Shown: piece after piece, positions 1-60,490 of the stretch
How positions within the stretch are numbered: the first letter of the stretch is position 1
How the letters are laid out: every line of letters starts with the position of its first letter
Source of the DNA: Spizellomyces punctatus DAOM BR117
Lineage: Eukaryota
NCBI GenBank assembly: GCA_000182565.2
Contig: KQ257451.1
Direction: 5' to 3' (one strand)
Length of the DNA: 64,000 nucleotides
Translations under genes and position numbers: made by a program
Notes under the pieces: generated by a model
What the model saw: the letters and a program-made list of their open reading frames with translations, nothing else
Told to the model about the DNA's origin: nothing
The model's database searches: none

Positions 1-3000
1 CTTCTCTGGAGTAGATTTACCAAAAGAAAACTCAACTCGAGCACATTCTTATTCGGCCGGATACGTACATTGGATCCGTGGAAAGTCAAACGGTCCCTAT
101 GTGGGTATTTGAAGACGATAAGATGGTATGGCGGAATGTCACATTCGTTCCTGGTCTCTACAAAATCTTCGACGAAATCATTGTCAACGGTAATCTAGTA
201 TGTACTTGATTCGCACTAGAAACTCAGTGATATTCATGATCTGCTTGCATTTTAGCGGCCGACAACAAGGTATCAACATTTCGGATCTGGTATCTTGGTA
301 GCCTCACGCACTTATCTTTGTTTGCAGGTTCGAGATCTCTCTATGGATGTCATCAAAGTAAACATTGACAAGGAGAACAATATGATATCCGTATATAACA
401 ACGGTCGAGGAATTCCGATAGAAATGCACTCGAAGGAACAAGTCTATGTTCCGGAATTGATCTTTGGACACCTACTTACATCGTCGAACTACGATGACAA
501 TCAAAAGAAGATAACGGGTGGAAGGAACGGTTATGGAGCTAAATTATGTAACATATTCAGTACTGAATTCATAGTGGAAACGGCGGATTCCGTAACAGGA
601 CGGAAATTTACTCAAGTGAGCTAGCAAAACAAGCAAACAAGCTGTTGCACAAGAGGTTCTGACTTTTTATTTTCAGATATTTTCAGAAAACATGAGCAAG
701 AAGGGCGTGCCCAAGACTACGAGTAATCCCCGGGGAGAGAATTACACTAAAATTACTTTCAAGCCCGACCTCGCCAAATTTGGCATGTCCACCATCGATA
801 ACGATTTCGAAGCCTTGGTTAAGAAGCGCGTCTATGATTTGGCCGGTTGCATTCGCGGCGTTAAGGTCTTCTTGAATGACGCCCGCCTGAAAGTCAAAGA
901 CTTCAAGGAGTATGCAGAATTGTACGTTAATAGTGCTACACCCGCTGGCGCGGTTGGCAAACCGACTATCATTTACGAACGCCCCAATGAACGGTGGGAA
1001 GTGGCTTTCACCATCAGCGATGGTCAATTTCAGCAAGTTAGTTTTGTCAACTCCATCTGTACGATGAAAGGTGGAACACACGTGAACCACGTCGCCGATC
1101 AACTTGTTGCGAGTTTAATAGAAGCAGTAAAGAAGAAAGACAAGAAAGGTGTGCCGCTCAAGCCATTTCAGGCGAAAAACCATTTGTGGCTATTTGTCAA
1201 CTGTTATATCGAAAATCCGGCGTTTGATTCGCAAACCAAGGAAAACATGACCTTGCGTCAAAGCAGCTTCGGTTCCAAATGCAATATCTCAGAAGACTTC
1301 ATGAAAAAAGGTTTGATCAGAGAACACAAGATTGCCATTTCCCTATTGTTATTCCTGACCGCTTTCCGATAGTTCTCAAGTCCGGTGTGGTGGACAACAT
1401 CTTGAGTTTCGCCAGATTTAAGCAGGACCAGCTCCTTAAGAAAACTGATGGAGTCAAGAAGACCCGTATTACGGGAATGGCTAAACTTGACGATGCAAAT
1501 AATGCGGGAACTCGCAACGCACACAAGTGTACGCTAATTCTCACGGAAGGAGATTCAGCCAAGTCACTCGCTGTCAGCGGTCTTTCTGTTGTCGGTCGTG
1601 ATAACTTTGGGGTTTTCCCCTTACGAGGCAAATTGCTGAATGTTCGCGAGGCATCCCATTCGCAAATTACTCAAAATACCGAAATCAACGCCATCAAACA
1701 GATTTTGGGTCTACAGCATGGAAAAGTGTACACCAGTACCGACAGTTTAAGATATGGGCATCTTATGATTATGACTGATCAAGTGTGTATCCATCTAGTG
1801 TGGCATCATTTCTTCATGACTAATGATATCCCTTTTCGTCAATGCTTAGGACCATGATGGTTCTCATATTAAGGGACTGATTATCAACCTACTGGACCAC
1901 TTCTGGCCTAGCTTGTTAAAAGTGCCTGGTTTTCTTCTCGAATTTATTACACCCATTGTGAAAGTGAGCTATTCATTTAGCGCCGCATTACCACTACAAC
2001 TCTCCTGATACAGTATATATAGGTGACAAAGGGCAGCGGGTCGCAGAAGAGGGAGCAATCTTTTTTCACCATCCCAGAGTATGAGGAATGGAAGCGGGCT
2101 CATGATGATGGGAAAGGTTGGACCATAAAGTACTACAAGGTAAGGCTGGTCGATGCTTTTGTTATTATTGTAGGAAGTTTGACCGATTGTTCTGAGTAGG
2201 GTCTGGGTACAAGCACTACTGAAGATGCCAAAAAATATTTTTCTGCGATGAACCGCCATTTAAAGCCGTTTAGTGCGGCGCAAGACGGAGAACGTGAGCT
2301 GATTGACATGGCCTTCAGTAAAAAGAAAGCTGACGATCGCAAGGAGTGGCTGCGGCAATTCCAAGTAAGTGTCTCCGGTCACTTTCGAATCTCTGCGATG
2401 ACGATCCTGATCTGCAAGTACCTTTCAGCCGGGAACATATATGGATCATTCCCAAAACCGCATTGCGATTTCAGACTTCATCAATAAGGAGCTCATTTTA
2501 TTTTCAATGGCTGACAATGCCCGATCGATTCCTTCCGCTGTGGATGGTCTAAAACCAGGTCAGCGGAAAATTCTGTTCTCTTGCTTTAAAAGAAATTTGA
2601 AGCAAGAAATCAAGGTGGGATGTCCTATCTTTCGTATTGTCGGACATCTACTGAGCCTTGCACAGGTGGCCCAGCTCGCTGGTTATGTGTCAGAACACTC
2701 TGCATACCACCATGGAGAGCAAAGCTTGTGCTCTACCATCGTCGGTATGGCTCAGAACTTTGTCGGGAGTAATAATATGCAATTACTTGAACCTCGAGGA
2801 CAGTTTGGAACCAGACTGCAGGTGCGCCTTCGACATTTGTTTTGTAAGATTGTTGTCAGCAGTTACCAATCCATGTGTTCTAGGGTGGGAAAGACGCCGC
2901 CAGTCCTCGTTACATCTTCACAACGCTGTCCCCACTGGCACGAGCATTATATCACCCAGCGGATGATGCTTTGCTGGCTTATCAAAATGAAGATGGACAA

Positions 3001-5548
3001 AGTATTGAACCTGAATGGTGCTGCCTACTTCTACTTCGTTGAAGCTGCCGCAATGTTGAAAGTAATTATTGTACCTCTCCGGCATTAGGTACTTACCGAT
3101 ACTGCCAGTGCTACTCATCAATGGGGGTGAGGGCATCGGAACGGGATGGTCATCCTCCATTCCGAATTACAAGTAGGTGCCTGCTTTTCAACATTATGTG
3201 CCTTCATTAATAGTTTTCAATGTGACATATCAGTCCCCGTGACGTAGTTGAGAACATCTTTCGAATTATGGATGGGGATGATCTTGTACCTATGCATCCC
3301 TGGTACCGTGGATACAAAGTAGGTTATAAAGCGTAACATGTTGATATCTGCTTGATTTTTTGACACGATTTTCTAGGGCACAATCGAATTAGTTGGCAAG
3401 GACAAGTACAGGGTGACGGGAGTAATCAAAAAGATTGACGAAACGACCGTCGAAATAACTGAATTACCAATTCGCACATGGACCCAAAACTATAAAGAAG
3501 ATTTAGAATCATGGCTTACAGGCACGGAAAAGCAGGCAGCTTGGATCAAGGATTATAAGGAATACCACACCGACTCATCCGTGCACTTTATTGTGACATT
3601 AACGGAGGAACAAATGGCCTTGGCCGAGAAGGAAGGTCTCGAGAAACGTTTCAAACTTGTTAGCTCGATTTCCACATCGAATCTGGTTTGCTTCGACCAA
3701 GAGGGTCGAATCAGGAAATACGAATCTGTTGAGGACATTTTTACCGAATTTTGCGACCTTAGGCGAAAGTATTACCAGAAGCGAAAGGCAAGAATTGGAT
3801 CTAAGCAAATATTGCCTCATACCCATTTCGGATTGCTTACCCGTTTTGTCAACAGGAATATCTTCTCAATCAACTCAACTCGGACTTGACCAAACTGGAC
3901 AACAAGGTGCGATTTGTGACGGAAATCATCCAAGGCGAGCTTGTAGTCCAAAATAAGAAAAGGGACGCTTTACTACAAGAATTGCGTCACCGAAAGTACG
4001 TTCCGATACACAACAAGAAAGAAAAGCCGGATGTGGATGAAGAAGCAGAAGACGAGGAAGAGTCAACTAAGGAGTCAAAGGGCCACGGATACGACTATCT
4101 ACTGTCCATGCCTATTTGGAATCTCACAATGGAGAAGGTGCAGCAATTAATGAAGCAACGAGATCAGAAGGCCGAGGAAGTTGTCATTTTGACCGGCCAG
4201 TCCATTAATCAGCTGTGGCGTACAGACTTGGACGCCTTTTTGGCGCAGTGGGATGTAAGGCCATTTGATCAATACGGAACTAGTTCAGAATCGTGAACGA
4301 AAGCTAATGATTGTCGATCCATTGCCCGGAATCAGCATTTTGAAAGGATGATGGAAGAAAACGATTCTCAAAAACCCGCTAATGGCACTACCGCGTTGGG
4401 AGCCGCGAAGACTGCACCCAAGAAAAATGGGGTGTCGGCCATTGCCAAGACCAAGCAAGCAGCAAAGAAGGTGATAGATGAGAAGTTAGATAAGAAGGCG
4501 TTCGATGTCAGCGATGATGAGGACGATGATGACGACTTCACACCTAAAGAAAAGGGTATAGCAAATAGGCATGCTGGTGCAGGATATTGATCTGACATGA
4601 TGAAATTACAATAACAGTTAGCCAACATCGCGCCACCAGCGCGAAACCTCGAACAGGGGATGGAAGCGCTAAAAGACTTACCAAAAATACGAAGGAGGAG
4701 CAAAAAGTAGAAGACGTGATGGTAGGGTTCCCTGGATTATCAGAGGTGCTTGTGCCTTACTATAACATGAAATGCAGGATGTTGAGATTAAAGCAGAGCC
4801 ATCGGCGCGCAAGACAGTCGCCACTCCATCTGTAGAGGAGTTGGCAGAAACCATGTCCAATATCAGCATTACCAAGAGACCAGAAGCCGGAAAGAAGCGC
4901 ATATTGGGCGGGAAACGAGCGGCAGCACCCGGACAGGCCAGAACCACGACCAAAAAAGCCACCGCAATGTCGGAGCAACTCGAGCCAGCCAAAGTCGGTG
5001 GCTTGATTGGTATGGAGTCCCCGGTAGAGGATGTAGTTCCTGTCAAGACACGTCAAACAGCCAAGGCAAAGATGCCTGCGAAGTCTCGCGCACCGAAAGC
5101 AACCAAGGTGCCCGCGGTTGTGGTGGACGAGTCTGAAGACGACGTGGATGATGAGATGGATATCAACGTGCTGGCAACGTCAGCCAAGTCCTCCAAGTCA
5201 ACATCTCCTGCGACCACCGCGGAAAAGAAGATAGCTCCAAGCAAAACGAAGATAGCGCGCAACAAGAAGGCTATTGTTGACTCGGACTCGGATGATGTGG
5301 AACATGTACCCGCCGTGATGAAGAAACCTGTATCGGCAGCACGTGCGACCAAAAAGAAACCGGTGGTGGATTCTGATGAGGACGACGAAATTGTTGCAAT
5401 TCCAGTGGTCGCTACTGGGGGACGAGGTAGATCAACTCGCGGCAAACAACCTATAAAATACTTCGACCCCGGGAGCGAAGAGGATCAGAAAGAAGAGGAG
5501 AATGAGAATGAATCTGAGAGTGACTTTAATGATGATGATGATTATTAG
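1..5548 (+). CDS. TOP2: DNA topoisomerase II (5' end lies upstream of window; multi-exon)
   Basis: Exon translations contain YQKKTQLEHILIRPDTYIGS, GGRNGYGAKLCNIFS, LILTEGDSAK, PLRGKLLNVR, YYKGLGTS, DGLKPGQRK, YHHGEQSL and ASPRYIFT, then an acidic/basic C-tail ending at TAG 5546-5548. Confidence 0.97.
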
Positions 5549-10075: not shown

Positions 10076-13260
<3,185 letters not shown>

Positions 13261-13477
13261 CGGTGATGTACTACTAATATTCCGGAAATATATCACACTT
13301 GCTTTGATTTCTTGAGTGTGCATCCTTTTACTGGTGTGGACTTTTCATGTGATCAAAGCCTTGCACAGGCACGCTCGGTAAAATCCTCACCAGAAATCAA
13401 AGGATATTGGCAAGAGGGCCTCCACGGCGAAATGATTATAATGTAATGTACAACGGAAAATTGAAGCCCGTCCATCA

Positions 13478-13796
13478 TCATGCGGACTTGTCGGCAGAGG
13501 ATGGTGGAGGCATTGGAATGTTATCAAAATCGTCACGGCCCGTCTTGTACATTGAATAACCAACTAGATTTGAGCGTTCCAGAGTGTGAGTCCAGGACAT
13601 CCCAACCATAAACTCCAAGGTCATGAGCAACAGCCAACTTACATATAGCCAGCGTTCCTCCCAAAAGAATTCCTCCCACTATCATATTCCTCTTACGGTA
13701 CGGCCGCATAATCTCCATTTTGGCGGCCATGAGCTGCTCGGGCGTCATGCTACGTTGGTAGGCGTTCAAATGTCTGTACGCTTCCTGAACTGGCAT
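13478..13796 (-). CDS. Small mitochondrial membrane protein, COA3-like (cytochrome c oxidase assembly factor 3), 2 exons
   Basis: M...MRPYRKRNMIVGGILLGGTLAI, then an intron, then ...MYKTGRDDFDNIPMPPPSSADKSA*. This resembles the fungal Coa3 pattern (RPY..N, one TM helix, DDF.D). Confidence 0.6.
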
Positions 13797-13950
13797 CTAT
13801 ACTCAACCATGTTAGTGATTGCATTAATTGCAAGTGTCAATGCGCGGTATATGCGATTAACTCACGTTATGGAAATCAAAAGGGTGAGCAGGCTGTTGAG
13901 GTGCTGTCGGAAGGGGCGGAGGATGAGCCATTTTGGTGATTTCCAAAGCG

Positions 13951-15753
13951 TTAACTTGCAAGCGAACTAGTTGCTTGTTCACTGTGCGCGTTGCCAGGAC
14001 ACCCAGAGATGCTAGTGACGTGGTCATATAGTGTGCCCCGTTTGTGGACTTTTTCAACCTTGCCTTCTCGTCGTCGATAAGGTCTTGAATGAGGTCGTTC
14101 TTTGAATTTTTTCTCCACAAACTCAGATGAGGAACAGCGAGGGCAAACAGATGAGGTCTTGTACTCGTCGAGAAGGAAACAATCAATGCGGTTGCGCTTA
14201 AAGAGGGTGCTCCAGCCTTTCGTCTTTGATGAGGTCTGAAATCTCGCAGTTCGACCAGCGTCGCTCCAATCACCCATCACAATGGTAAAGTTCCCAAACT
14301 TGTTGCGCAAGTTGGATATGAGGTTCGATTCGCTTCGCTGCCGATTGATGAAGGAGTGCCATTTCCATCGCATGTGGGCAGGGTGGGAGTAGAATTCCTT
14401 GCGACGATCCCAATCAGCGCGGCGAACGAGAAGGTAGCGAGTGAAGTCCATGAGGTTCATTGTTTTGTGGGATGGTATTCGTGATTCTATGAGATCAACT
14501 CCAGCTTCTTCCTTCATTGCTTCTCGTCTCTTTGCAAATCGCCGGCTACCTGTCTCCACGGCTCGCTGGTTGGCGGTGTAGCGAAATGTCGTACCACTGT
14601 TGTCTTGGCAGTAGAGAAGATCGCGCTTGTTTGGGTCGATAACGATGACATTTTCTGCTGCTCGACAAGCAGGCAAGTTTTTCTCCACATATTGCGCTTT
14701 AACGTCGTCCTCTAAACTCTTTGCTGACTTTCTCGCTCCGCGCTTTCCACACTTGTCTGCTTCTGGGTGCTTTAGGTATACAGACACCGAGGTTCCGTCC
14801 GTCGTGATCGAGCCTTCAAAACACATTCCATGACGAGATCTAAAAGCCTTGTTCTGCAGATTACAGATGCGCAACCATAAATCGACCTTCTCTACGGCTT
14901 CTGCTTCTCGTCGCGTGATGCAGAGGATGTGGGCGTAGAGAATGAGCGTGTCGATGCGAATATGGGACTGAATCAGAGACCGATGAAGAGGGATTGCACT
15001 GAACCGACGGAAGCCATGTCGTTCATACAGCCCAGAGAGTTTGCAGTATGCAGGAAAGAAAGCGAGAGGGTCTACAGCAACCGAATATGCGAACGGCTGG
15101 TCAGAAAGGGGAATGAAGGACCACATCTCTTCTAGAAGTTCACTCTCTTTAGCAGTCAAGTCATCAAGTGACTCGGGCACAATATCAAAAAGGAAAATTG
15201 ACTTCAAGTAGCGTAGCCGAGCAAAGAAAGCTTTCCGCGCTTCACTCTTTGGAGGCCCTTTCCGTCCCTTCACGTCGAGCCGCAGATTGATATACCGAAG
15301 GAGCATCTGCATGAAATGCTCTTGAACGTTGACTTTCAGGTTCGTCATCATACTCACTGTCAGGTAATTGACTGATTGCTGCTCGCCTCGTAGATTTGGG
15401 TGAACAAAGCCGACGATTTGGCAGTACCGTTGAACATATGGCAGCAAACAATCCCGCCATGCCTTCTTTGCTTCCTTTCTTGGATGCCAAGCCTCCCCCT
15501 TGTTGAGAAGATAGAGAATCGCTTCGATTGTATCTTCATTTACCGTGGGAAAGGTTGGTGCAGATAGGATGTAGAATTTGAGAGCGTGGGAAGCGTGGTC
15601 GGCGAGTTGATGGATGATGGCGATGTAATCTAAAAGCCGTTGGCAGTAGATGTCGTTTGGCAGGAAAGCTTTTGCAAAGGAAGTCTTGTTGCAGGTATGT
15701 AAGCAAGTAGGTTTGTCGAGTTTTTCGAGCCTTTGCTTTTTCTTTGGTGGCAT
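13951..15753 (-). CDS. Fanzor1 (TnpB/Cas12-like RuvC RNA-guided endonuclease), C-terminally truncated: 570 Fanzor codons plus a 30-aa foreign tail
   Basis: Starts MPPKKKQR (NLS-like, ATG 15753). Has SITTDGTSVS, RuvC-I VIVIDPNKRD (Asp codon 14635-14637), VMGDWS, RuvC-II LLDEYKTSSVCPRC (Glu 14164-14166; CxxC 14134-14145). Very similar to recalled SpuFz1 up to ...EKVH, then diverges; no second Cys pair and no NRD RuvC-III. Confidence 0.92.
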   Translation of the reverse strand: MPPKKKQRLEKLDKPTCLHTCNKTSFAKAFLPNDIYCQRLLDYIAIIHQLADHASHALKFYILSAPTFPTVNEDTIEAILYLLNKGEAWHPRKEAKKAWRDCLLPYVQRYCQIVGFVHPNLRGEQQSVNYLTVSMMTNLKVNVQEHFMQMLLRYINLRLDVKGRKGPPKSEARKAFFARLRYLKSIFLFDIVPESLDDLTAKESELLEEMWSFIPLSDQPFAYSVAVDPLAFFPAYCKLSGLYERHGFRRFSAIPLHRSLIQSHIRIDTLILYAHILCITRREAEAVEKVDLWLRICNLQNKAFRSRHGMCFEGSITTDGTSVSVYLKHPEADKCGKRGARKSAKSLEDDVKAQYVEKNLPACRAAENVIVIDPNKRDLLYCQDNSGTTFRYTANQRAVETGSRRFAKRREAMKEEAGVDLIESRIPSHKTMNLMDFTRYLLVRRADWDRRKEFYSHPAHMRWKWHSFINRQRSESNLISNLRNKFGNFTIVMGDWSDAGRTARFQTSSKTKGWSTLFKRNRIDCFLLDEYKTSSVCPRCSSSEFVEKKFKERPHSRPYRRREGKVEKVHKRGTLYDHVTSISGCPGNAHSEQATSSLAS

Positions 15754-15906
15754 GATGATATCTGTAGAAAAGCCTGGGAAAATGGGCGACGACTTATATA
15801 GGATTTTTTGGATCAAACCATAATTCATGAGTCTAAATCGAGTAAAATTATGATTAAATTGGTTGGAATCTCTGTACTAGTACCAATACCAATCGGCTCC
15901 GCACTA
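14029..15906 (-). mobile_element. Spu-1-like Fanzor1-carrying TIR element, internally/3'-deleted, putative TA target-site duplication
   Basis: Left end on the minus strand reads CA-TA|GTGCGGAGCCGATTGGTATTGGTACTAGTAC (15908->15874). The other end keeps only ...CAC|TA (14033->14029) after a 10-nt non-Fanzor junction segment. It contains one long intronless ORF, unlike nearly all host genes. Confidence 0.8.
15874..15906 (-). repeat. Left terminal inverted repeat of the Fanzor element plus TA
   Basis: Plus strand GTACTAGTACCAATACCAATCGGCTCCGCACTA closely matches the recalled 3' end of the SpuFz1 omegaRNA/right TIR (...GUGCUAGUGCCAAUACCCACCGGCUCCGCACUA), as expected for an inverted repeat. Includes the 10-bp palindrome GTACTAGTAC. 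Confidence 0.8.
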
Positions 15907-16175
15907 TGTATTCCGTTCACACGGATGGCATATCTGTTTTTCCTCGTAGACATATATATATCGGCGGCGCCTCAGATACTTGTCACCTTCAACTGCTATA
16001 GAATTATCTTTTTATTGAATTTGCTCCCAAGTCCTTTCGTTATAATTGGTGTGCAGTATAAGGTCCGGATAACTTGGCAGCTAAAGATTTTCTGCATACC
16101 ATGGACAAATTGTGGACAATAAAGTCTAGTCTTGCAGAGGGTAGAATACTCACATGGTCTGCAAGAAATAAAGTC

Positions 16176-17142
16176 CTATATCTCAATCATTCTCTTTAAA
16201 AACTCAGGGGCGCGGAGAAGCCTTCGTCCTTCAGAGATCTCCATTCTCGGATAGACATCATCGAGAAAATAGTATACATGCCCCACAGCCAGCCCCATGA
16301 GGTCGCCTGCCGGCCATTGGTTGTTCAGGAGGATGGTAAACCCGAGTAGCACCCATGGCAGGTACGGAGCAGTAAAAGTGAAGATCCCCAGAAAGTTCAT
16401 TCGAATGAATGCATTTCGTCGTGACCAGACGTAAACGAGCATGAAAGTTAGAGGAGAAGAGAGGAACGGGATGGAGGTACGAGCAGGGAGTAGAGGCGAC
16501 ATGCCCTGAGAAGAAAAGGTTGGTTACTATTACATGACTTTTTGACGTATATCACGTCAAACTTTTCCGACGTAAGCTTACGATTGTTGCCAGCATTCCA
16601 AATAATAGAAACCATAGGAAGTCAGCCGTCCTCCCACGGAAAGAGCCTTCCTCCAACATACGGCTATATCGGACGCTGGAAAAACAACATTTGAGCATTT
16701 GCTTGTCCGCTTCACCAGACTAACACTAGCCATACGTACAGGAAGAACATGTGGAAGAGGAAGTCGAGCGAAAAGTTTCCAAAGTACAGGAAGCTTGTGA
16801 TAAGTCGCCACCACTGTGATGCACCAACCAAATCAGTCACACACCAACAATCATTAATGGTGGACCAACAGGGACGCAGAAAGCTGCCTCAAAGCCTCAT
16901 GTACTTACTTGTCTGGATCGCCATATCAGCGTCCAGTTGAAGTAAAGGTGAAAGGGCGACACGAGATCCAGTTGCTACATGAATGCAATTGTGATAGATC
17001 CGTCGGTGATCGATTCCATTGTGCCAAGGGAAACCCCACATACTGAACTTACGCAGGCAAGGGTGGTCAACACCACAGCGGTAACATATGTCCGTGTGAT
17101 GACCGGTACTTCATAGTACCACTCTTCTATAGGAAATGGCAT
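16176..17142 (-). CDS. Derlin (Derlin-2/Der1 family ERAD membrane protein)
   Basis: [62 protein letters not shown] and [12 protein letters not shown]. Confidence 0.92.
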
Positions 17143-38670: not shown

Positions 38671-40467
38671 TTATTTAAACAAGTTTTTGAGCTGCAGAAA
38701 AGTGACATCAGTGAACCATCACACGAAGCACAACTGAACGGTGTCAATGTCTTGCCTTTTTCAGGAAGCCACCTTTCTTCTTGCCGACCGATCCAGATGT
38801 AGCGGTAGTGGGTTTCGCCTCGGGCTTTGTGAAAACGAATATACGCATCTGAGTACTATGCAAAACTAAAGATGCCTGTGCACAGAAATACCTTCTCTGC
38901 CGGAGTCTCAGTAGGAGTCGCCGTTTCCTTAGCAGCTTCCTTGGTGGTGGCAGGGGTTTCCTTGACGGGGACAGCGGGTGTAGGTGGTTCTGTTGGCACA
39001 ATACTCTCCGAGGGCGGGGGAACAGCCGCGGTCTCCGGCACACTGGTAGGAGCGGGCGCAGCCGACTCCGTCGTTTTGGGTTCTTCGGCTTCATTGCTTG
39101 CTGATGCAGCACTCGCTCTGAGGCTGTTCAAAGCAGCCTCTGTAACATTATCCGATTTTGCGGGGCTCTCTTCTTTCGCGACGGCGGTACCTTCCAGCGG
39201 AGGTGTTGCGATGGGAATCGCTTCCAACGCCAAAGGTGCTTCAGACGTAATGGCAACAGCTGCAGCGGACACAGGAGCAATTTCCGCTGCGGCAGATTTC
39301 TCCACGATAGGTTCCTCCACAGCCCCCAGTTCCTCCACGACAGGGGTGGTGGCTTCGGTAATGGGTGCAGGGGTCGCTTCCACTTTAACCGATTCGGCCG
39401 GTTCGACAATGTCTTTGATCTCCGGTACAGTAATCTCGGTGGGCCCGGGCACTTCGACAGAGGCTGGCGCAGCTTCAACTTCGACGACCTCCTCAGCGGA
39501 AGGTGTGTCAACCTTGTCCTCCACCTTGGGCTCAACGACTTGGGTTTCGACAGGTGCAGCACTAACTTCCGGAACAGGAGCTGCCAAAACTTCAGACGGT
39601 GTATCCTCCACCTTGGGCTCTTGCACGCTAATGGCTGCGACCGGCGCAACCTCAGCCTGTGTCTCTTCGGCAGCTTCAAGAGGTTCGGGGACGACAACCT
39701 CTGCGGGTGTTTCCTCTTTGGCTTCCTCCACAGGCGCTCCACCCGTAGCAGGTTGTGTCTCTACTTCTACAGTATCTTCAGCATGTACTGGAGTGGCTTC
39801 GCTCGCTGCAGGTACTTCAGCGGGAACCTCAACAGGAGCAGACTCTGCGAGAACTTGGGGTTCTTTGGCAGTCACCTCTTCAGCCTTTTCAACAGGAGCG
39901 GGCACCGTAGTGGATTGCGGAGCGGGACCCGAGGCCGGCTCGGCAGATTCCTCAGGAAATGTGAAAACGTTGTTCTGATTGCCCTGTTCGGATGGATATT
40001 CCGGTCAGCAGCCGTGAAGAAGAGCAGATCAGGCGACATTGCAGCACTCACACTTTCATCGGTTTCAATTTCATAGTTGTCAGCATTCTTCCAATCGTCA
40101 TCGACAACGAACTTGAATGCAATCTTGGTGTTTGCGGGCAGGTCGAGCTTCGCGCGATGGATGCCGTCTTCACCCTGATAAACAACATCAATCACGTTAA
40201 CGCGATTCTCGGCAAAATAGACATATCCCCAACTCCTCTCACCTTCACCGCTACATTCTCTTGTTTCCAGTCATCAAAATCGCCAGTGAGAATGACCTAG
40301 ATTGACAAAAGACCTTCACTCAGCAACGATCACTAGTATCGTGTGATAGGACACCCCTTCTGCGACATTCAGGACAACGTCGGTGGAGAGCGACCGAAAC
40401 TCTCTTACGCGCCCGTAATGCGTACCTTTTCACCGCCTTGTTTCCATTCAAATATCTGAAGAACCAT
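38671..40467 (-). CDS. AMPK-beta-type CBM48 glycogen-binding domain protein with a long Glu/Ala/Pro/Val-rich tail (Crp1/Mdg1-like architecture)
   Basis: Spliced N-terminus MVLQIFEWKQGGEK|VILTGDFDDWK...IAFKFVVDDDWK...GNQNN, a ~350-aa low-complexity exon, and the end KKKGGFLKK|LKNLFK*. Confidence 0.75.
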
Positions 40468-60402: not shown

Positions 60403-60490
60403 CTCCCAAACGGGGAATCGAACCCCGGTCTTCCGCGCTCTGGTCTTTTGGACTGACAGGCGGAGGTACTAGCCACTATACTATTTGGGA
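60403..60490 (-). tRNA. tRNA-Asp(GTC) with a 16-nt intron (60438-60453)
   Basis: Acceptor stem TCCCAAA/TTTGGGA+G, D-arm TAGTATAGTGGCTAGTA, anticodon stem TCCGC/GCGGA with loop CT-GTC-A^C, T-loop GGTTCGATTCC, and a downstream T5 terminator near 60378-60382. Confidence 0.93.

Follow-up and report, generated by a model that had tools for sequence, protein, structure and literature searches.

A locus in a 64,000-nucleotide stretch (the window) of Spizellomyces punctatus DAOM BR117 contig KQ257451.1 is a partial, inactive copy of SPu-1, a family already in print (Bao and Jurka, 2013; PMC3627910), and thus an ordinary transposon relic. We hold with high confidence that it is a 3′-truncated, one-ended copy of this element, which encodes SpuFz1 when full, and that it is young, dead and immobile. 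SPu-1/SpuFz1 is the founding and best-characterized Fanzor, studied by cryo-EM, biochemically and as a genome editor and with its full, partial and ghost loci in S. punctatus already inventoried, and the literature establishes intact family members as omegaRNA-guided, CATA-TAM-dependent dsDNA endonucleases. The copy keeps its left inverted repeat (IR) with the CA/CATA signature, its 5′ leader and the first 570 codons of the family reading frame, which cover WED, REC, the first two RuvC motifs and the first Cys pair. Nothing of the element remains 3′ of His595. The missing part comprises ~57 codons, among them those for the RuvC-III Asp and the second Cys pair, as well as the 75-nt scaffold of the omegaRNA and the right IR; its loss would most simply be due to a deletion or to copying that was left incomplete. 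The frame now continues for 30 codons into unrelated host sequence, and its openness would reflect youth (~1% private change), not selection. Judged from its sequence, the truncated copy is predicted to have neither catalytic activity nor its own guide RNA, and to be unable to move.

Table 1. Positions of the truncated element, its motifs and the flanking host genes in the window.
Feature	Position	Strand	Remarks
Fanzor1 ORF, 3′-cut	13951..15828	minus	uninterrupted; 625 codons counted from first ATG
PPKKKQR, basic NLS-like N-terminal motif (putative function)	15730..15750	minus	residues 27-33
RuvC-I motif IDPN	14629..14640	minus	residues 397-400; D398/N400 = SpuFz1 D383/N385
RuvC-II motif DEYKTS	14152..14169	minus	residues 554-559; E555 = SpuFz1 E541
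CPRC, first zinc-finger Cys pair	14134..14145	minus	residues 562-565; = SpuFz1 C548/C551
His595, last family-homologous codon	14044..14046	minus	breakpoint between 14044 and 14043
Non-family tail, 30 codons + stop	13951..14043	minus	frame reading through into host DNA
Left (5′) terminal IR of SPu-1, 32 nt	15875..15906	minus	read from sequence
Conserved CA upstream of 5′ IR	15907..15908	minus	with first TA of IR reads CATA, the SpuFz1 TAM
Small host gene downstream, three exons	13478..13931	minus	ATG at 13931; introns 13797-13865, 13564-13642
Der1-like (derlin) gene upstream, last coding exon	16176..16502	minus	Pfam PF04511, E=2.5e-27

A Fanzor1 reading frame close to SpuFz1

The original prediction of a Fanzor1 gene, an intronless ORF of ~600 codons among intron-rich host genes, named no strand; the uninterrupted ORF is confirmed and lies on the minus strand. 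Initiation at the family start MPPKKKQR (ATG at 15751-15753) gives a product of 600 aa, and ORF residues 26-625 are identical to database protein P0002 (600 aa) from the same contig. Codons 1-25 (15754-15828) form an upstream extension that is missing in the paralogues aligned with it. All of the motifs named in the prediction (PPKKKQR, IDPN, DEYKTS and CPRC) were located in the ORF. The intron-rich setting was likewise borne out, as both introns of the downstream host gene are backed by spliced contigs and reads.

A phmmer search of the PDB returned SpuFz1 (8gkh_P; E=0, 1123 bits), aligned from query residue 26 to 595 against chain residues 395-975, and PpFz1 at 1e-35. This significant similarity, which spans WED, REC and RuvC, establishes the Fanzor1 assignment. 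Identity to SpuFz1 (PDB 8GKH, 9CEU-9CEZ), which is probably the 638-aa S. punctatus protein P0004, is ~87% over residues 26-595 (569 aligned columns with P0004), and the locus is indeed a distinct copy, a paralogue of SpuFz1. In total, 56 homologues were recovered at E<=1e-5, with 16 named Spizellomyces punctatus paralogues at 81-88% identity to the ORF protein, and homologues carry the precomputed label PF26935. The survey covered other copies of the family as proteins and as contigs and reads of sequencing runs. A local Pfam scan of the ORF protein gave 0 families and is uninformative, because full-length P0004 and P0003 likewise score 0. A protein-pattern scan of metagenome contigs matched 4 loci; the one inspected (L001) has 53% identity and a gene split into two ORFs, keeps the C-terminal WNRD block and yielded no convincing IR, and an IR pattern with its two private positions set to N had 0 matches across the metagenome.

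Common to SpuFz1 and the truncated copy are the N-terminal basic motif, the WED, REC, RuvC-I and RuvC-II regions, the first Cys pair, the TAM contacts and the left IR with its CA. The TAM-contact residues R96, Q129, Q130, N133 and R291 (SpuFz1 numbering) are all kept, as are R387 and R414 of the RNA/TAM-contact set, and the retained 570 residues are as conserved as in intact copies. RNA and DNA binding may therefore persist. Two SpuFz1 residues are replaced, Y345 by Cys and W570 by Tyr.

Private divergence of the copy is ~1%. Only 6 of 568 residues occur in no other of the 16 S. punctatus copies (the other copies have 4-37 such residues; rows P0012, P0015 and P0019 were dropped from this count as non-S. 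punctatus), and just 2 private changes hit sites that are otherwise invariant. Among the 40 of 393 nucleotide-difference rows listed, those resembling changes private to the window comprise 9 non-synonymous and 3 synonymous differences (n=12), and those shared within the family 11 and 13, respectively (n=24). With so little private change, the open frame needs no selection as its explanation.

The missing 3′ end of the element

In a tblastn comparison with the C-termini of 6 paralogues, the match to the family ends precisely at 14044, with His595 as its last residue. Gone with the following ~57 conserved residues are the second Cys pair (C586/C591 in SpuFz1), which leaves the zinc finger incomplete with CPRC as its one pair, and the RuvC-III Asp (D606 in SpuFz1). 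In an alignment of 9 proteins, the block GLLGC.NP.C...RYWNRD...GRP is missing solely in the ORF protein; across the 19 closest homologues, 12 carry WNRD and 7 are without the C-terminal block. No frame of 13301-14300 encodes this C-terminal block (tblastn; best chance matches E>=0.08), nor was it found by tblastn in any frame of the whole 64-kb window. The best candidate for a displaced C-terminal exon, at 5097-5180 (E=0.011), proved on inspection to be a W-rich chance match. SpuFz1 ends in the segment containing C586, C591 and D606, whereas the truncated copy has 30 unrelated residues instead. This tail resembles paralogue C-termini at chance level (in 2000 shuffles, 213-1651 score at least as high as the real tail), and its interpretation as the second zinc knuckle of the family, hinted at by MAFFT, or as the first was rejected because shuffles put both at chance level.

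A contig of run X10 aligns at 14044-14582 and then runs into 30 letters unlike the window; reverse-complemented and translated by hand, these read GLLGCTNPNC, as in the family. The 3′ truncation rests on the assembly and on this paralogue contig diverging at 14044, and no listed record bridges 14043/14044. Runs X2 and X10, both labelled 'DNA?', were left out as DNA evidence because both contain spliced contigs.

The catalytic triad of SpuFz1 is given as D383/E541/D606 (PMC11423790), and D383 and N385 of RuvC-I are among the metal ligands listed in PMC10432273. By alignment, the RuvC-I Asp (D398) and RuvC-II Glu (E555) are present in the ORF, so that D383, N385 and E541 have a counterpart and D606 has none. 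The position equivalent to D606 is Asn in GtFz1, and the D606N variant of SpuFz1 is reportedly active (PMC11423790), which indicates that the third catalytic position tolerates change. D606N, however, substitutes one residue, whereas in the S. punctatus copy the whole segment is gone.

At the other end of the element, the upstream terminal repeat, predicted as ~31 bp, is real: it comprises 32 nt plus CA and is present in other loci. A CA motif beside the IR and a CATA TAM have been described for SPu-1/SpuFz1 (PMC10432273), and a TA target-site duplication for SPu-1 (PMC3627910). The TA at 15909-15910 may be such a duplication, whose partner is missing with the right end. Within the window, the left IR is single copy (at <=3 mismatches and also at <=10/32). 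Position 15882 is crossed by 10 contigs from run X2 and 9 from run X1, with a summed depth of 2373 vs ~70-90 in the flank, and RNA reads belonging to other loci part from the window sequence just past 15907 (76 reads) and 15910 (31 reads). The left IR is thus multi-copy in the organism and shared by many copies. Additionally, record 8 of X1 (724 nt, 0 mismatches) joins the flank to the element over 15842-16565.

The prediction of a complete TIR element did not hold, as no inverted partner of the left IR exists in the whole 64 kb, even with <=10 mismatches in 32. Near the ORF, candidate partners, inverted or direct, were chance-level pairs only, and a blastn-short comparison of the two flanks with the window gave nothing >=16 nt. 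Family homology extends over ~1865 bp (14044-15908) with one end, compared with ~2100 bp for a full SPu-1; going by published figures, the loss should amount to ~171 nt of coding sequence and ~80 nt more. No transposase is encoded, as originally stated, but the accompanying proposal of mobilization in trans is inapplicable to a copy with one end, which cannot be mobilized by its IRs. Nor does the anticipated omegaRNA at the 3′ end find a place: there is no right IR, and the ATG of the host gene lies 20 nt past the ORF stop, leaving no room for it. On the basis of these two observations, the omegaRNA scaffold is taken to be missing; Rfam gave no match at the locus. The IR letters have 0 occurrences in the main text of the Fanzor papers, whose supplements probably hold the IR and omegaRNA sequences.

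Alternative explanations and related systems

That the locus is a TIR element encoding an active RNA-guided endonuclease and its own omegaRNA, as originally predicted, is extremely improbable. An ORF open over 600-625 codons, the presence of RuvC-I, RuvC-II, CPRC and the left IR, and conserved TAM contacts would suit a working nuclease, but the D606 equivalent in RuvC-III, half of the zinc finger (the second Cys pair), the right IR and space for an omegaRNA are all missing, the DNA-unwinding residue Y345 of SpuFz1 is Cys, and sense RNA is near zero. SpuFz1 itself has Y345, W570, the omegaRNA scaffold and the right IR. It is also highly improbable that the protein has been exapted as a nuclease-dead, RNA-guided DNA binder or competitor that uses omegaRNAs which ghost or full elements supply in trans, in the manner of the bacterial TldRs. 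Like these TnpB-family proteins, it is without a complete RuvC triad, and bacteria are known to have domesticated TnpB in this way; the S. punctatus genome is reported to hold 134 ghost loci (Saito et al., 2023; PMC10432273), which provide omegaRNAs without protein, and the retained core, including all seven contact residues listed above, has stayed intact and shows very few private changes. That same low divergence, however, makes retention of the ORF uninformative, and the private changes listed are mostly non-synonymous (9 vs 3, in a small partial sample). Moreover, the sense strand is barely transcribed (one run), the 30 codons of the tail come from host DNA by accident, and the NUC lobe, which, following the structure description in PMC10432273, also contacts the omegaRNA, is probably destabilized by losing the final RuvC segment together with half of the zinc finger. 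TldRs are described as expressed and conserved proteins coupled to a guide RNA and to target promoters; the truncated Fanzor, in contrast, has no cis guide RNA and almost no sense transcript, and no sign of selection was seen in the small samples. If exaptation were true, the dead Fanzor would bind CATA-flanked targets without cutting, as a repressor or a competitor of active Fanzors, and would be the eukaryotic counterpart of bacterial TldR.

A collapse or mis-join within a repeated element could make a full copy look truncated, and SPu-1 is a multi-copy family whose junction at 14043/14044 no independent record among those listed spans. Such an assembly artefact is nevertheless very unlikely, since the join lies in unique context, continuous into an expressed and correctly spliced host gene. 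The database protein of the contig is the same 600-aa product, although, being derived from the assembly, it offers no independent check. Partial copies are also common, as seen in the 7 of 19 closest homologues without the block, and partial loci have been reported in the S. punctatus genome (PMC10432273), where 42 full or partial Fz loci are counted, 19 of them full-length and 23 partial (Saito et al., 2023). A 3′-truncated SPu-1 relic fits the 'partial Fz loci' class of that inventory, and it shares with SPu-1 as described in PMC3627910 a single intronless ORF, a 30-33 bp terminal repeat, the lack of a transposase and many genomic copies. For mining and annotation, a long ORF that has RuvC-I, RuvC-II and a single CxxC can mimic an intact editor even when RuvC-III, half of the zinc finger and the guide RNA are missing, and the C-terminus and 3′ end need checking before any Fanzor locus is called functional.

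Transcripts over the element and its host genes

The element occupies the 2.2-kb gap between the derlin gene and the small spliced gene. The derlin transcript stays at gene-level depth to ~15900, the left end of the element, with an X22 minus-strand depth of 25-37 from 16266 down to 15904. Low sense expression of the truncated ORF is weakly established: in one stranded run, of which ~6% was read at 80% likeness and in which depth is not locus-specific, sense depth is 0-5 over 13968-15782 vs 25-52 for the neighbouring genes. Toward the downstream gene, minus-strand depth, 4.8 in bin 13968-14088, climbs to 47.9 in bin 13847-13967, and the tail region is probably the promoter or 5′ UTR of that gene. 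The locus shows how a truncated element can come to provide the stretch directly upstream of a host gene start. Splice joints of this small gene are seen in X2, X10 and X22. A Pfam scan of its exon-2 ORF found no family; the gene may be COA3/CCDC56-like.

Abundant plus-strand RNA, antisense to the ORF, covers the left ~480 nt of the element (15420..15903) as a family-wide signal. Depth per bin in this interval is 26/105/116/167 on the plus strand vs 4.1/1.6/3.6/121 in sense. An omegaRNA-like fold of this antisense left end (plus 15818-15922) was considered and rejected, its stability not exceeding that of shuffles (z=+0.83). The RNA could be an undescribed transcript of SPu-1 copies, either element-encoded or silencing-related; beyond 15904, plus-strand depth is 1.5.

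A Fanzor1 open reading frame related to SpuFz1

The minus strand from 13951 to 15828 forms a single unbroken frame of 625 codons counted from the first ATG. The window's own database protein (P0002, 600 aa) equals ORF residues 26–625 exactly, starting at MPPKKKQR (ATG 15751–15753), and the MPP start is common to all six S. punctatus paralogues in a nine-protein alignment. Because P0002 and the paralogues all start at MPP, the first 25 codons of the ORF are an accidental upstream extension. The uninterrupted frame of ~600 codons in the original prediction is borne out, and the motifs PPKKKQR, IDPN, DEYKTS and CPRC named there were each found in the ORF.

Coordinates of the ORF motifs and of the tRNA gene
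Feature	Position	Strand	Basis
PPKKKQR motif	15730-15750	-	ORF translation
IDPN motif	14629-14640	-	ORF translation
DEYKTS motif	14152-14169	-	ORF translation
CPRC motif	14134-14145	-	ORF translation
tRNA gene	60403-60490	-	sole Rfam match in window

A phmmer search of all PDB chain sequences returned 8gkh_P as the best match (E = 0, 1123 bits), an MBP fusion of Spizellomyces punctatus Fanzor1 in which residues 395–975 of 1032 align with query residues 26–595; the second match was Parasitella Fanzor1 (1.1e-35). A large protein search (7439 candidates) gave 56 homologues at E ≤ 1e-5, including 16 named S. punctatus DAOM BR117 proteins with 81–88% identity to the window ORF and more distant proteins from other chytrids. 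These matches support both the predicted Fanzor1/SpuFz1 family and a distinct copy close to SpuFz1. The paralogue P0004 is probably SpuFz1 itself: its length of 638 aa is that published for SpuFz1, and its D383, N385, E541 and D606 coincide with metal ligand positions described there (PMC10432273, PMC11423790). A local Pfam scan found no family for the window's protein, but none for P0004 either, and is therefore uninformative.

Loss of the 3′ end and the adjoining host gene

The window protein tracks its family as far as ...EGKVEKVH (His595) in the nine-protein alignment and then departs; the C-terminal block GLLGC.NP.C...RYWNRD...GRP..F.R closes eight of the nine proteins, the window protein being the sole exception. 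In tblastn searches against 13301–14300, six paralogue C-termini all stop aligning at 14044, and downstream the family C-terminus was not found in any frame, with only chance matches at E ≥ 0.08. Among the public sequencing runs aligned to the window at 80% likeness, a 565-nt contig from run X10 covers 14044–14582 with 56 differences and continues into 30 letters unlike the window; their reverse complement, translated by hand, gives GLLGCTNPNC, the family's next ten codons. Because the tblastn alignments end at 14044, the tail is non-homologous and the X10 contig diverges there, the breakpoint of the copy falls between 14044 and 14043. Past the break lie 30 unrelated codons and a stop (13951–13953). 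As a family C-terminus this tail is equalled by 213 to 1651 of 2000 shuffles, and as a copy of the ORF's first zinc knuckle by 352 of 2000. A possible displaced C-terminal segment at 5097–5180, the best whole-window tblastn match (E = 0.011), was recognized on inspection as a W-rich chance match.

In SpuFz1 numbering, the copy retains the equivalents of D383, N385, E541, C548 and C551, lacks C586, C591 and D606, and carries Cys for Y345 and Tyr for W570. The catalytic triad of SpuFz1 is described as D383, E541 and D606 (PMC11423790; PMC10432273). A complete Fanzor1 locus, as originally predicted, is not what the window holds, since the third catalytic residue, the second Cys pair and the right terminal inverted repeat (IR) are missing. 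Partial copies of the family are common: the C-terminal block is missing in 7 of the 19 closest homologues too, and full-length genes are reported for 19 of 42 Fz loci (PMC10432273).

The ATG of a small host gene (13931) follows close behind the stop and leaves no space for an omegaRNA 3′ of the ORF, so the omegaRNA predicted from the element's 3′ end is absent here. Introns 13797–13865 and 13564–13642 of this gene (CT..AC on the plus strand) are both spliced out in a 2977-nt contig of run X2, the latter is also absent from an X10 contig, and their splice joints are spanned by 5 and 18 reads, respectively, of the stranded RNA run X22; the claim of intron-rich neighbours holds for this gene. 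Runs X2 and X10 are labelled 'DNA?' yet, containing contigs without these introns, behave as RNA-derived. The gene presumably resembles COA3; its exon-2 ORF matched no family in Pfam. As X22 minus-strand depth jumps from 4.8 in bin 13968–14088 to 47.9 in bin 13847–13967, its transcripts probably begin within or beside the Fanzor ORF tail. With such a start at the non-homologous tail, the Fanzor remnant would sit in the gene's promoter region (13930–14043). Convergent with this gene is a Sec23-like host gene (12088–13108, plus strand) with a Sec23 helical domain just under the Pfam cut-off and a gelsolin repeat; an intron boundary at 13033 is visible as loose ends.

The left end and antisense RNA

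The left end has the minus-strand sequence TA-CA-TAGTGCGG..., in which the repeat occupies 15875–15906. SPu-1, the element encoding SpuFz1, is described as having a 30-nt IR preceded by a conserved CA, with CATA as the SpuFz1 TAM (PMC10432273), and Bao & Jurka described a 33-bp TIR with TA duplication (PMC3627910); judged by its letters, the left end fits these descriptions. The repeat is single in the window and multi-copy in the organism: position 15882 is crossed by 10 X2 contigs (summed depth 2373, versus ~70–90 in the flank) and by 9 contigs of run X1 (flank depth 3–5), and 76 and 31 X22 reads lose their match just past 15907 and 15910, respectively, and continue with differing sequences. 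The predicted upstream terminal repeat is thus genuine. A 724-nt X1 contig (record 8, 0 differences) spans 15842–16565 and confirms the element–flank junction, provided that X1 is not itself the assembly's source. The reverse complement of the repeat has no other occurrence in the 64 kb at ≤3 mismatches, nor at ≤10 of 32 (20 shuffles gave 0 matches 19 times and 1 match once), and no ghost element was found within the window.

The upstream neighbour is a Der1-like gene, whose last exon (PF04511, E = 2.5e-27) faces the element and whose transcript holds gene-level depth to ~15900, close to the left IR. An expressed host gene thereby adjoins the relic on each side (derlin side 15842–16176, small-gene side 13930–14043).

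X22 reads over the element's left ~480 nt (15420–15903) are overwhelmingly antisense to the ORF (plus strand), with mean depths of 26, 105, 116 and 167 antisense and 4.1, 1.6, 3.6 and 121 sense; antisense depth drops to 1.5 just beyond the element. Most antisense reads bear the letters of other copies, several loci contributing, and a minority carry the window copy's own (32 of 110 at 15633). The cDNA-like run X2 likewise peaks at 15178–15661. The fold of plus strand 15818–15922 is no better than shuffles, and the word 'antisense' is absent from the main text of PMC10432273.

Status and age of the copy

The family is already known: the SPu-1 element has been described (PMC3627910), its protein, RNA and structure have been published along with an inventory of the genome (PMC10432273, PMC11423790), and intact copies are published as omegaRNA-guided, CATA-dependent dsDNA endonucleases. 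We infer that the window copy is an inactive relic, because it has no third catalytic residue, half a zinc finger, no guide RNA and one IR. The same missing parts contradict a working nuclease, which is barely conceivable, and with only one IR the copy cannot be mobilised, so the predicted mobilisation in trans does not apply. The core and the RNA- and TAM-contact residues are intact, as an exapted dead Fanzor working with omegaRNAs supplied in trans would have them; we consider such a role very improbable. Among the records listed none spans 14043/14044, which would suit a misassembly at that point; we consider such a misassembly very improbable. For the relic, the 3′ end may have been lost by a deletion that also took flanking DNA, or by an incomplete copying or repair event.

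Private residues of the copy, absent from the other 16 S. punctatus copies, number 6 of 568 (those copies' own range is 4–37; P0012, P0015 and P0019, from other sources, were left out), and at sites where all 19 other sequences agree its only changes are L246F and Y360C. For a copy with this small number of lineage-specific changes, chance alone would leave the frame open. Codon 14749–14751 (Y360C) is the equivalent of SpuFz1 Y345, the residue at which DNA unwinding is described to begin (PMC10432273), and is Tyr in 8 of 8 other aligned proteins. Among 40 listed of 393 nucleotide differences, 36 lie in the ORF; 12 look window-private (9 non-synonymous, 3 synonymous) and the other 24 comprise 11 non-synonymous and 13 synonymous. 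In this small partial sample the pattern points towards drift after insertion over constraint. X22 is forward-stranded, as three host genes agree, and in ~6% of its reads mean sense depth over 13968–15782 is 0–5 despite paralogue cross-mapping, versus 25–52 for neighbouring genes.

A 3.4-kb metagenome contig (L001), in which no convincing inverted repeat was found, carries a Fanzor1 relative at 1451–3228 (53% identity); its gene lies in two ORFs (1451–2431, 2467–3228) and keeps the C-terminal GLLGC...WNRD block. In the window's composition profile, 39001–40000 and 4001–5000 stand out by a local GC peak (0.574 versus ~0.47) and strong AT skew (0.305).
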